NCBI GenBank assembly: GCA_964016885.1 | Contig: OZ024745.1 | Location: forward strand, 73,904,001 to 73,968,000 | Length of the DNA stretch: 64,000 nucleotides | DNA from: Eledone cirrhosa | Lineage: Eukaryota | Direction: 5' to 3' | Part shown: positions 2,490 through 59,240 of the stretch, piece after piece | Layout of the letters: every line of letters starts with the position of its first letter | How positions within the stretch are numbered: the stretch's first letter is position 1 | Translations under genes and position numbers: made by a program | Notes under the pieces: generated by a model | Database searches by the model: none | What the model saw: only the letters and a program-made list of their open reading frames with translations | Told to the model about the DNA's origin: nothing

Positions 2490-2523
2490 GCATCTGATGA
2501 AGTAACAGAAATATATATAATGC
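2490..2523 (+). ncRNA. Minimal type I hammerhead-like motif with rudimentary stem II
   Basis: GCAT-CTGATGA-AGTAACA-GAAA-TATATA-TA-ATGC followed by AATAAA. Stem I is GCAT/ATGC, stem III is palindromic, stem II is unpaired. Confidence 0.5.
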
Positions 2524-2702
2524 AATAAACAATTATGGCGATTTAATCCCATCTTAACTACCAGTATTTGATAAATGTATACTCTGTCACTTAATATCAC
2601 CTGCCTGGGATAAACTACTGACGTGTAGTGCTTTGGTTTGCTTATCATCAGAAGTTACTGCGTAACAACTAAAATAAACAACACTCTTGTATATATATAT
2701 AT

Positions 2703-3087
2703 AAACGGAAAAAATGAAACGAAATTTCATTTCCCACTCTTGGTACGGCTGTTACTTAAATATAAGTATGTACACGTACATACATATATGTATACAGACG
2801 TACAGTAGTATGTATATATATATACATACATGCACACATATATATATGTACGTATGGATTCACCGAACATTTATTATAATGCTCGGTGTGTTTGTAACCA
2901 AACATCCCGTATTAAGCCGTAGTGTCCAGAAACCATCGTTGCTCGTTTGTTCAACACTGACAAAGGAACGCTGTACTAGTTTCAAGCTTATTAGCTATCG
3001 TTAATATGCATAAGGTAAGTATATACGTTCAACAATCTAGCAGGACGGTATACGTTGCTGACGATAGCTAATAAGCTTGAAACTAGT
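2703..3087. mobile_element. Non-coding PLE pLTR-type element, family C (ACTAGT hammerhead), inverted arrangement
   Basis: 2703-3002 is the reverse complement of the 34660-35000 type sequence. 3011-3087 matches 34601-34685 and ends at GAAACTAGT. Confidence 0.75.
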
Positions 3088-3089
3088 TG

Positions 3090-3700
3090 GCATTTTGGCA
3101 TGTTGGTGGAATACAGATGGGCTCTTCCCATCTTGGAGTTTTCCCCAGTGTTCATTTATTCTTTCTCCTATGCTACGGACTATCTCACCTATGTAAGTTG
3201 TGTTCTTATCCCTACACTGTCTCCCAGTTTATCTTATGCTAATACCACATTCCTAATTTTACAGGCAGTTTGTGGGCTTAATTTGCAGGCTATGCATTTC
3301 CTATCAGTGCAGGGTTGTTTTAATAAGTATATCTTCTACTAATTAAGGCTTTATGGGGATACCTTGTCTTTCAACTATTTTAATATTTCATTTTAGTTTG
3401 TCTTGTGCCCTTCTAAATCTGTAAGCTAGTTCACCTGAGGAGAGCAACTACTGAGATGTAAACATTTCATTTTTAGAATTAAGATATTGATATGATGATT
3501 TCAGATCATGTATAGTTCTGAAATTTTCACTGGTACATAAAGCATTCTTCTTTGAACCGTTGATGTATAGACTGGAGCTTTCCAGAATTTTCCATTTTAT
3601 TGTATGGGGAATACCACTGACTTTCAATTGCCAGACCTGTTTTTCAAGAGCTTTAGGTGTTTTCCGCTCAGGATGTTTTGTCCTTTAGGATTCACATACT
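3090..3700 (-). pseudogene. Decayed PLE GIY-YIG endonuclease fragments (two pieces)
   Basis: Minus strand gives PCTDRKCIAC, CKIRNVV and TYIGEIVRSIGERINEH (3100-3330), plus IPHTIKWKILE and YINGSKKNALCTSE (3500-3620). Confidence 0.65.
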
Positions 3701-55484: not shown

Positions 55485-56084
55485 ATGAATATGGAAAAGC
55501 ACTCAGCAGAACCATGTGAAAGGAGGGAAGGGGGGGAGCCCAGTGCCCACCCAAGAAACCCAAACAGACCCGGGGACCTCCCACCGCGCCTGGGGGAAGA
55601 CCACCATATAACACCTAACGGGAACCCCAATCTAGGCACGCAGAAGTCGACCACCATCTGCAACTGCAGAAACCCCGAATCATGCCCCCTTGGTAATGAA
55701 TGCCTTATGAAGAACCTAGTATACGGTTGTAGGGTTAAAACCCCCAACTCCAAACACCTCTACATAGGAGCCACATCAACGAGCTTTAAAGACCGCTGGT
55801 ATAACCATCGCCATTCCTTCAATAAGGAGGCCAAAAGGAAAAGTACGGCTCTCTCCGACCTGATCTGGAAGCTTAAGCTGGACAGGACCCCGTACTCTCT
55901 GGCCTGGTCCATAATCAGGAAAGTACCACCCGATAAAGGGGGATCTTGCATATGCAAACTATGTCTGAACGAGACCCTAGAGATACTAAGAGGTGGAAGC
56001 GGCCTGATAGACCTCAGAACCGACTTCTTCGGGACATGCAGACACCTCAGGGCCGGGACCTTCCTCAAGATATATGGACAGTAG
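55485..56084 (+). CDS. PLE GIY-YIG endonuclease domain (partial ORF, Neptune-type)
   Basis: CNCRNPESCPLGNECLMKNLVY, LYIGATSTSFKDRWYNH, STALSDLIWKLK, CKLCLNETLEIL and GTCRH. Confidence 0.85.
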   Translation: MNMEKHSAEPCERREGGEPSAHPRNPNRPGDLPPRLGEDHHITPNGNPNLGTQKSTTICNCRNPESCPLGNECLMKNLVYGCRVKTPNSKHLYIGATSTSFKDRWYNHRHSFNKEAKRKSTALSDLIWKLKLDRTPYSLAWSIIRKVPPDKGGSCICKLCLNETLEILRGGSGLIDLRTDFFGTCRHLRAGTFLKIYGQ

Positions 56085-57369
56085 CAACACAATAAGATGT
56101 GAACTCCCCTCAAGCTATAGGGACTTCTCCAGAACATGTAGACACCTCTCGGCCAAACCTCCCTCAAGCTATATGGGCAGTAACAACACCATAGGTTGGG
56201 AACTCCCCTCAAGCCATAGGGACCAACCCAGGCTGAGCAGACACCATGATAGCCTAGAGATTGATTCTGACACAGCCTTTATAATTTGGCCAACATTTTA
56301 TAACACACACACATTTTAATTTACCTGATTTTTGATTTTTCAATTTTGATTTTTATATTTAAGTTGAGATTGGTTATAACACACTCATATTTGATTTGAT
56401 TATCCTATTTCGTTTTATTCTTTTACCATCTTGTTCCTCCTACCAATCTATCCAACATATTTCTGACCTTGAGATTGGTTATAGCACACACACATTTTAT
56501 CTTATTTTATTCGAATCTTCATTTCATTTTTCACTTTTCATTTTCATTTTTCATTTTCCATATCATTTTTCATTACTTTTTCATGACCTTTTCATCAATT
56601 TTTCATTTATTTTCTATCTATTATTTATTTTCTGCTTACTTCATTTTATTGCCTTCTATTTCTTCATATACATGGTAGAACCCCCCCCCCCCCCAACCAC
56701 CGCCACCACTACCACCACCACGCGAGATGGTGGCAGGAGGATTGAAGAAACACACACACAGATACTTCTAAATTGTCAGCAGCAGCAAGACATAAGCTGA
56801 CCACAACACCAACAACACTACCAAAATAAGGGTAGAAGTCAGCAAACACAAACACTACAGGGAGCCTCACCCCAGAAAGAATTTCTATAGACTTTGGACT
56901 GAGGAATGCTCTCATAACTGACCAATGGGAAGTTTGACCTTACAAATCTTTATAACATTGAGATGGGTATAACACACACACATTTTATTCGATTATTTTA
57001 TTTTATTTTGTTCCTTTACCATCTTATTCCTTCTACCACTTTATCACCCTTATTTCTTGCTGACTCCAACAATAACACCACTACCAACACAAGAATAGAG
57101 GTCAGATGTACCTAACAATAACAAGAACAACAACTACAGATTGGCTTGCCTCAGAAAGAATTTCTATAGACTTTTGACTGAGGAATGTTCTAACAACTGA
57201 CCAATGAGAGGAGAAGGGGCCCTTTGACGCTGAAATTCGTTTGTTTAAATTCATATGATTCCAGTTCCTCAGTGAAATAACAACCCAACTAGGAACTGGG
57301 CATATCAGAGTATTGACAAAGTTATACACCTCAACAACATGTGTACTCGTCTCTACCACACTAATTCGG

Positions 57370-57424
57370 ACTGCCTGAAGAGGTCACAGCCAAAGATGGC
57401 TGTCACCGAAATATATATAGCAGT
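57370..57424 (+). ncRNA. Type I hammerhead ribozyme, family A
   Basis: ACTGC-CTGAAGA-GGTCACAGCCA-AAGA-TGGCTGTCACC-GAAA-TATATA-TA-GCAGT followed by AATAAA. Confidence 0.88.
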
Positions 57425-58789
57425 AATAAACGAAGCCAAATTTTAAACATTTGACTTATTTATTTTATTTTATATTACTCCGGAGTAACCAAACCAACCT
57501 GCGCACTTCGTCGAGTGCTCCAATCTGCATACTGAGGTGTTGGTATACAACCAACATATAGTCAATATATACTCAATATATATATATATATATATATATA
57601 TATATATATATATAATTCAAATTAAAAGATATAAGTATAGAGAATGAGAGAGAAAAAGCCATATATCCTTTGAAAAAATATAGTGTTTTGTACACATATA
57701 TAAAGCACATAATATTCAGGAAACAGTACATACTTTAAGGTGAAAAACACCATTATTTTCCTTACGGCACCCTTTCATATTTCGGAAACCGGAGCAAAAA
57801 ATCAATCTAAGTAATCAATTATCGATTAACAATTATCGATTTTGGTAAAACTACGGAAGATGCGAACGAATGCTCTGGGCAAAGGTCTATTGAGTCTTTT
57901 CATTATATACATATAAACATTATAAATATATATATATATATATATATATATATATATGTTTACGTTTATAATTTGCTTGTTTATATATATATATGTTTAC
58001 GTTTATAATTTGCTTGTTTATATATATATATATATATATATATATCATAAAACATGTCTATAGAATCACCAGATAAAATATATACCATTTCCTCTCCCAA
58101 TTTATATATATATATATATATATATATATTTATATATATATATATATATATATATATATATATATATATATTTATATATATATATATATATATATATATA
58201 TATGTGTATATATATGTATACATATATATATATATATATATATATATATATTTATATATATATATATACATATATATATTTATATGTGTATATATATGTA
58301 TACATATATATATATATATATATATATATATTTATATATATATATATACATATATATATTAAGTATTTATGTTATCCTTTCTTCTGTACTCTTCTAAAAC
58401 TTGAACGTGTTATGAATGTCACCTTCGACTCCTGGAACGATTCCATCAAACATGCTTATACCGTATTCTGTAAATCAAATGGAATTCATTCACTCCCGAC
58501 TCTGGTATCCTAGCGGCATCTAGTATTTTTCCATCCAAAAAACCAACTCTGGACATATTGTCCGCATGAATGGTGATATATCTATAGCTCTGGATTAAAA
58601 AAAAAAACACTTATTGGAAAAGGAAAACAAATATCTCAACGTATTGGATGTTAGTCATTTATCAGAATATGAGGAGGTTGGAAAGTGGAATTTAAAAAAA
58701 AAGTGTTTATCTGGATGGGTGAAGTTGGTGGGTAGGCAATCCGTCGTCTGAGGTGGTGCACCGATCTATAGTTGGTATCGATATGTGTA

Positions 58790-59240
58790 TGCGGATGAAG
58801 CCCAGTCAAGCCGAAAATGCATAGACGGTTGTCTCCCTTGCTTCTGCTGGACACAACCAGAGGGCGTTAGCCCCCGGTGTTTGCATAGCTACGGCTTCCT
58901 AAAACCGTGTTTCTTTAGAAATACGAAATTTCTATACATATTTGTATAAAGCTAAGCTTGAGGCGAAATCTTATTTCTATTCTATTATAATTTGAGCCAA
59001 CTTATGCAGCTTCATATGCAAATGAGATTAATCACCTCATTTACACAGACGAGAAAACTATATATTCTCGACTGTCTTCAAGTCCAGCAGCCGCAAGCGG
59101 TGGGAGGGACCGTTCTGAAGAAGGCCAGACAAGCCTGAAATGCATAGACGGTTCTGCTGAACACCACAAAACCGTGCTGGCTTCCTAAAACCGTGTTTCT
59201 TTAGAAATACGAAATTTCTATACATATTTGTATAAAGCTA
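58790..59240 (+). mobile_element. Retrozyme-like tandem element, HHR-to-HHR spacing about 323 bp
   Basis: TGCATAGACGG occurs at 58818 and 59141. Degenerate HHR at 58793-58830 and intact HHR at 59109-59152. Confidence 0.8.
59109..59152 (+). ncRNA. Minimal type I hammerhead ribozyme
   Basis: ACCGTT-CTGAAGA-AGGC-CAGACAA-GCCT-GAAA-TGCA-TA-GACGGT, AUA site. Confidence 0.9.

Follow-up and report, generated by a model that had tools for sequence, protein, structure and literature searches.

We analysed a window of 64,000 nucleotides (nt) of Eledone cirrhosa DNA (contig OZ024745.1, positions 73,904,001 to 73,968,000 of the forward strand; coordinates below are counted within the window). It is repeat-rich, animal-like DNA with a GC content of 34%, and tandem-repeat masking covered 20,134 of its 64,000 bases. 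The window contains about 24 sites of the type I hammerhead ribozyme whose stem III is a palindrome of 6-8 nt, roughly half of them with an intact core and three helices, and the hammerheads of families A and B sit 3' of open reading frames (ORFs) for a GIY-YIG endonuclease (EN) belonging to Penelope-like elements (PLEs). A preliminary description had suggested that the palindromes, which differ among families, could act as self-recognition codes; we consider it probable that these are PLE hammerheads whose palindrome is kept for pairing between copies and not as a selected family code. The sites group into families A, B, C, D, E and F and the singletons G, H, I and X; the main features (strand in brackets; RT, reverse transcriptase) are:

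26665-26719 (-): family A hammerhead with ATATATAT, intact; left arm of the inverted insertion 26615-26882
26778-26832 (+): family A hammerhead with ATATATAT, intact; right arm of the 26615-26882 insertion, tail about 100 nt longer
54671-54725 (-): family A hammerhead with ATATATAT, intact; inverted 5' piece of the insertion 54637-57570
55482-56084 (+): end of the family A PLE ORF, Cys-rich linker (CNCRxxxxCP) and GIY-YIG endonuclease, 200 amino acids open
57370-57424 (+): family A hammerhead with ATATATAT, intact; the EN stop lies about 1.29 kb upstream
10813-10868 (-): diverged family A copy (79-83%), stem III ATATATAC, U16.1 lost; site 10863-
10247-10312 (-): family D hammerhead with ATACGTAT, intact; arm of the inverted insertion 10113-10499
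10400-10465 (+): family D hammerhead carrying ATATATAT, as in family A; site 10408+
31811-31876 (+): family D hammerhead with ATACGTAT at 31860-31867; reference for the read variants
22417-22456 (-): family B hammerhead with ACAATTGT; core GAAA mutated to GAGA
22646-23721 (-): family B PLE remnant, C-terminal part of the RT, then linker and EN; stops and frameshifts
23681-24235 (+): end of the family B PLE ORF, Cys linker and GIY-YIG-type EN, 30% identical to the family A EN
24419-24458 (+): family B hammerhead with ACAATTGT, core intact; 189 nt 3' of the EN stop
45162-45201 (-): family B hammerhead with ACAATTGT, core intact, stem II weakened; EN remnant at 45370-45672 (-)
34649-34693 (+): family C hammerhead with ACTAGT, intact
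21820-21857 (+): family C copy with ACTAGT; core CAGACGA at an inversion junction
3058-3088 (+): family C copy, core intact; ends right after ACTAGT, 3' arm of stem I lost
2967-3001 (-): family C half motif with ACTAGT, without CUGA
59106-59155 (+): family F hammerhead with ATGCAT, intact; second of two same-strand units in a 323-nt tandem
58792-58829 (+): upstream unit of family F, ATGCAT kept; core decayed to CGGATGA
38543-38586 (-): family F copy with ATGCAT, core intact, stem I decayed; 76-78% identical to 58.8-59.1 kb
36690-36781 (-): single hammerhead G with ACATATGT; stem II domain of 61 nt
50683-50739 (-): single hammerhead H with ATGATCAT; stem I of 4 bp, base of stem II weak
39192-39215 (+): family E remnant, stem II hairpin, GAA and ACCGGT; core degenerate; arm of the foldback 39019-39282

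The motifs are real. A scan with a type I descriptor that was blind to palindromes (stems I and II together at least 8 bp) gave 10 matches, and stem III was palindromic in 10/10, while 100 local dinucleotide shuffles gave a mean of 0.07 matches (0.01 palindromic; maximum 1). A more tolerant scan found 15 matches, which comprise 13 palindromic ones (12 with all core bases), the long-hairpin hammerhead J at 37703(-) and 7351(-), the last likely due to chance; reading the sequence contexts added 11 further decayed, cut or truncated sites. The core (CUGANGA, GAAA, UH), flanked by three helices of which stem I is the closing one, is intact in 12 palindromic sites and in the non-palindromic hammerhead J described below. 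An Rfam search of the window at the gathering score returned no match. The preliminary count of about 20 motifs thus holds, given the ~24 sites, and every palindrome it listed was found in its place: ATATATAT in family A (26714-, 26783+, 54720-, 57375+), ATACGTAT in family D (10304-, 31819+), ACAATTGT in family B (22451-, 24424+, 45196-), ACTAGT in family C (2983-, 3058+, 21820+, 34656+), ATGCAT in family F (38580-, 58792+, 59115+), and at single places ACATATGT (36775-), ATGATCAT (50735-), ACCGGT (39204) and ACGATCGT (24819- and 15261).

Families A and B belong to the C-terminal EN+ PLEs, and this membership likely extends to most other hammerhead families of the window. The EN of family A matches PF01541 weakly (E 7.5e-4, below the cut-off); a full search with its frame recovered 4427 relatives, and word-based protein searches recovered only 1 and 0. 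In family B, tblastn finds the C-terminal part of the RT followed by the EN. The RT-EN linker carries a Cys motif (CNCRNPESC in family A, CSCRKPEAC in family B) that is conserved in the EN alignment, and the window ENs form long branches in the EN tree. Naiad can be ruled out as an assignment, because the window EN is C-terminal to the RT. Copies are inserted in (TA)n, truncated, and often arranged as inverted pairs. The distance from the cut site to (TA)n is fixed per family in families A, B and D (34-61 nt at the short end, 102-156 nt at the long end). Insertions extend beyond the cut site, so the template was presumably uncleaved or re-ligated there, which matches the circular-intermediate model of PMC4209133. 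One-sided tails of about 70-100 nt are seen in families D, B and A (10113-10255, 22320-22420, 26880-26985 and 57460-57575). The family C copy at 3058-3088 (+), one case only, stops at the cleavage site, at an inversion junction.

For a comparative view of stem III, we used the EN alignment to take 80 of 391 confirmed loci, on metagenome contigs, and parsed their hammerheads without regard to palindromes. A locus's own motif could be assigned in 57 loci and none was usable in 23; L032 and L042 were dropped as ambiguous (motifs of L005 and L070, found later, are not included), and the remaining 55 loci collapsed into 47 families at 85% amino-acid identity. A single locus came from viral contigs, and it had no hammerhead. 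The own hammerhead lies 56-520 nt behind the EN match or, in six loci, about 2.3 kb upstream, an assignment supported by terminal repeats or by homology. In these families stem III measures 8-10 nt, and its outer four pairs hold in 47/47; in shuffles, pairs 3 and 4 held in means of 24.1 and 20.2 (maxima 37 and 30) of 47. The fifth pair holds in only 12/23 families, and perfect palindromes are found in only 10/47. Pairs 1-2 are invariant, pair 3 is A-U or U-A, and pair 4 comes in six types. On the EN trees (quick and FastTree, with low support at many forks), pair 3 changes 6 times, each time on both sides, and pair 4 about 14-16 times. Since the loop that pair 4 would have to close within one copy is 0-2 nt, this pair presumably forms only between copies. 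According to fixed-register nearest-neighbour sums, from which all energies given here are predicted, stem III hairpins of monomers lie at +2.4 to +6.0 kcal/mol and stem III helices between copies at -8 to -12 kcal/mol. The part of the preliminary description that took these for PLE-type hammerheads with a short palindromic stem III, likely working as dimers, is supported, as is, at the level of prediction, its idea that cross-activation among the window families is limited. Dimer cleavage of PLE hammerheads with a short palindromic stem III has reportedly been described by Lunse et al.

Our preferred explanation is as follows. The motifs are type I hammerheads that terminate, on the 3' side, repeat copies inserted in (TA)n, which are truncated and often inverted (PLE copies in A and B, and likely in most other families); their short stem III, predicted to be unstable alone, likely pairs with its counterpart in another copy on a tandem transcript, and the resulting double hammerhead would cut out a unit-length RNA. 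Selection would act on self-complementarity and not on a particular sequence, and the palindrome would drift by pairing-preserving steps (U-A, U.G, C-G), looking family-specific because it is inherited with the lineage. Stems I would also form between copies in the double hammerhead, and for that reason any two diverged families would be incompatible as a by-product, mostly via stem I. Proximity within one transcript would supply the rest of the self-preference (in the full-length loci L014 and L063, a 5' hammerhead and a matching 3' one are separated by about 2.39 kb). The copies in the window are likely inert, because the members of the inverted pairs are on opposite strands, and two intact cores are nowhere paired on the same strand; in the only same-strand pair (family F, 58792/59115) the upstream core is decayed. 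In three related loci (L002, L008 and L028) the contig ends overlap exactly (55-102 nt), so that the PLE unit closes on itself in the assembly, which would be expected of tandem or collapsed copies.

The role of stem I would follow from the topology: if A15.1 of copy X pairs with U16.1 of copy Y, the 3' stem I arm of Y must pair with the 5' arm of X, which makes three inter-copy helices. Both stems I of a homodimer are predicted at -8 to -33 kcal/mol and contribute 39-77% of the predicted homodimer energy (over half in 7/8). Like pairs reach predicted totals of -20 to -42, and unlike pairs of window families all stay weaker than -9, which predicts mutual incompatibility among the window families; even the pair of A with the D variant that has an identical stem III reaches a predicted total of only -8.3, as compared to -23 to -27. 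Unlike pairs of co-resident families outside the window are predicted to keep on average 60% of the stem III energy and 32% of the stem I energy; at least 70% is kept by 12/30 such pairs for stem III and by 4/30 for the total, and L016 and L062, with 40% EN identity, are predicted to be fully cross-compatible. On these predictions, self-preference is likely real, but as a by-product of divergence and with stem I carrying most of it. Swapping the palindromes alone would be the wrong test of partner choice, because stem I, too, is exchanged between copies.

In another explanation, stems I and III of the double hammerhead jointly serve as a pairing address in two parts, and in genomes crowded with PLE families nested on the same strand selection keeps the addresses apart, each lineage cutting and circularising its own unit only. 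Unlike hammerhead types do occur on the same strand around one element (L019: 2159, 4751; L022: 163, 1000, 1305; L041: 620, 1737), and in L019 a full 737-amino-acid ORF lies between an unrelated ACGT-type hammerhead upstream and its own 10-nt type downstream. Selection for such an address would let transposons tell self from non-self at the RNA level and would supply dimer ribozymes that are naturally orthogonal; we regard it as unlikely.

The self-recognition code of the preliminary description, by which co-expressed families are driven to different palindromes and only like copies activate each other, is in our view improbable. In its favour, stem III differs among all seven window families in most copies and is nearly orthogonal by prediction, family F keeps ATGCAT across 76-78% divergence, and the foreign hammerheads on the strand of the element in L019, L022 and L041 make cross-talk possible in principle. 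Against this, ATATATAT is common to families A and D in the window (D copy 10408+), and family D is polymorphic in reads. We mapped four public runs on the copy at 31735-31880 and listed variants of at least 2% (run X5 of organism B gave 1 contig only; X7 and X8 are one study). Position 31863 is C>T in 96% of the contig depth of X1, in 474/476 reads of X7 and in 437/442 of X8, and position 31864 is G>A in 27%, 185/476 and 183/440, respectively. The commonest form in the runs would thus be ATATGTAT with a U.G centre (about 57-69%; seen directly in one loose-end consensus), followed by ATATATAT, the palindrome of family A (27-42%), and the window's form ATACGTAT (at most 4%), three forms that lie on a U-A / U.G / C-G path. 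Among the variants listed, none reached 2% at 31819-28, 31854-62 or 31865-70 (core and outer stem III), while the stem II loop is variable at most places and stem I variants A>G at 31871-72 yield U.G pairs. CpG decay after insertion was rejected as the origin of these variants: T is near fixed at 31863 and the mirror product (C with A) accounts for at most 4%. The preliminary description itself had named variation within families as grounds for refuting the code, and family D shows such variation.

Related families give no sign that co-resident lineages avoid each other's stem III (the sample is small, and an assembly may mix hosts). Among pairs of families co-resident in one assembly, 3/30 are identical over the entire stem III, as compared to 0.9 expected from identity-matched other pairs, and 9/30 are identical in the stem III arms, as compared to 5.4. 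Over all pairs, the same arms are found in 38/394 below 45% EN identity and in 20/31 above 65%, and this rise with EN identity points to descent. In the published alignment of PMC4209133 (Fig. S3), many co-resident PLE families likewise have the same 4-nt ACGU stem III. The stem III and total energies that co-resident pairs are predicted to retain, with L016/L062 at predicted full compatibility, also speak against the code, as does a predicted specificity that lies mostly in stem I. If self-recognition were selected, it would amount to RNA-based incompatibility between retrotransposons that share a genome, and orthogonal ribozyme pairs could be drawn from it; the present data point against such selection.

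A further alternative is that stem III is a short monomer hairpin with a tiny loop that is helped by proteins. Stems of 9-10 nt could fold as 3 bp with a loop of 3-4 nt, and dimers are slow in vitro, for which host factors have been proposed (PMC4209133); we nevertheless hold this to be quite doubtful, as pair 4 covaries in the 47 families across those 0-2 nt loops and the 6-8-mers of the window are paired right to the centre, with hairpins predicted to be unstable. It is very improbable that the palindromes of A and D, which are AU-rich, imitate the (TA)n target, the cut RNA end annealing to nicked DNA and priming reverse transcription: A and part of D do end in GAAAUAUAUAUA at the cut and all insert in (TA)n, but no A or D copy stops at the cut site (a tail of 50-156 nt lies beyond it), and B, C, F and G have the same target with other palindromes.

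Several points weigh against inter-copy pairing without a code, the explanation we prefer. On stem III alone, near-orthogonality is predicted for the seven window families, with A/D as the exception. Within the window, the palindrome is kept in A 4/4, B 3/3, C 4/4 and F 3/3 (the last at 76-78% identity), as compared to D 2/3 and E 1/2. The copies of each family stem from only two or three insertions, and descent therefore explains much of this constancy, since six unconstrained positions in copies that are 90% identical would all be retained with a probability of about one half (0.9^6 = 0.53). Both window insertions of family D carry the C at 31863 that makes up at most 4% in the runs, whose organism may be another population or species than that of the window (the best run shares 0.48 of words). 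Linkage of the two D positions derives from the near-fixation of T and one loose-end consensus, the list of D variants lacks 11 rows, and the restriction-site-associated DNA (RAD) reads begin at only about 93-98 places. The 47 families represent one subclade picked by peptide patterns and contain no close relatives of the window elements, and within the window no coding link was found for families C-H, E and I. Cleavage as a dimer is here a proposal from sequence and energy models.

Some sites of the preliminary description had to be revised, and one was added:

2490-2523 (+): lone motif, core intact, ATATATAT, stem II collapsed; not family A
24808-24819 (-): half motif, GAA-ACGATCGT-A, no CUGANGA
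37632-37710 (-): hammerhead J, non-palindromic, core intact; stem I of 7 bp, stem III a hairpin of 8 bp with a GGGA loop

The site at 2490 had been placed in family A, with which it has no BLAST homology, and its 7-nt stem II cannot fold. The half motif claimed at 24.82 kb stands as to GAA-ACGATCGT and fails as to CUGANGA. Its counterpart at 15.26 kb is doubtful and was not accepted: 15261 is without GAA on either strand and is located at the centre of the foldback 15229-15297, so its palindrome arises by construction. The hammerhead at 37.7 kb (J) had been missed. ACCGGT at 42994 and 9310 and ATACGTAT at 25033 and 42442 have no core or stems and were taken as chance occurrences. The inverted partner of the family E remnant (foldback 39019-39282) reads ATCGGT, not ACCGGT. 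Hammerhead J is single copy within the window and predicted to be competent as a monomer; its unit (37419-37911) is about 450 nt long, non-coding, has terminal direct repeats of about 40 nt, and is inserted in a microsatellite. A long helix III has been described for fungal and protist PLEs and is not the usual animal form.

Other repeats surround these elements. Decayed PLE sequence untied to any family was found by tblastn as EN remnants at 3400-3756 (-) and 38123-38518 (-) and an RT/EN remnant at 45736-46037 (+). More short foldback insertions flanked by (TA)n (10552-10741, 26171-26314, 26448-26539, 34256-34351, 47137-47499) are probably PLE family ends cut short ahead of the hammerhead. 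A repeat of about 200 nt, resembling a short interspersed nuclear element (SINE) and without a hammerhead, occurs in at least nine places (14214-14427, 19343-19452, 20985-21190, 29157-29502, 33605-33794, 40178-40397, 44100-44299, 50393-50457, 59523-59604). A 37-bp minisatellite with 38 copies at 97% identity fills 12332-13748, and beside it a stretch at about 11.7-12.2 kb, near 12044 (-), resembles by eye a mariner/Tc1 transposase fragment.

As for known systems, type I hammerheads with a small palindromic helix III lie in the pseudo-long terminal repeats (pLTRs) of metazoan PLEs (Cervera and De la Pena 2014, PMC4209133), where the short palindromic stem III is unstable and two tandem copies are modelled to fold into an active double hammerhead; their activity in vitro is low. 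The dimer mechanism is also given in reviews (PMC6466107, PMC6765202). The window motifs resemble those of PMC4209133 in core, type I topology, palindromic helix III and, in several families, a long helix II, and the elements are alike in having many families per genome, mostly solitary truncated copies, a hammerhead 3' of the EN, and opposite-strand pairs 100-700 bp apart. With 6-8 nt, the palindromic stem III of the window is like the Drosophila, Aedes, shrimp and rotifer variants of that paper, whereas the strict minimal hammerhead ribozyme (min-HHR) has 4 nt, and no window motif shows its A15.1-N-N-U16.1 arrangement without loop 3. No recognition code is discussed in the part of PMC4209133 examined, and our literature search found no paper proposing one, which does not establish its absence from print.

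The carriers resemble the Neptune and Nematis EN+ PLEs (Craig et al. 2021, PMC8557442) in the GIY-YIG domain after the RT, the Cys-rich linker, the insertion in (TA)n, and the partial tandem or inverted, 5'-truncated copies with a tail at one end only (about 70-100 nt in the window, 30-40 bp in PMC8557442); this likeness is one of anatomy and linker. Family F, a non-coding 323-nt tandem of two units, is retrozyme-like: non-LTR (long terminal repeat) retrozymes (PMC7229834; bioRxiv 10.64898/2026.07.22.740005) also have a non-coding tandem unit with one hammerhead per unit, and J compares with them as a non-coding unit with terminal redundancy. Unlike these retrozymes, F has only one intact core of two, and J has a long self-contained stem III. 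PMC4209133 already reports the motif, its link to PLEs, the presence of multiple families in one genome and the dimer model; the window adds further families of the described motif, and the related loci add comparative support for the dimer model in the form of a pair whose two sides covary although the loop between them is too small for closure.

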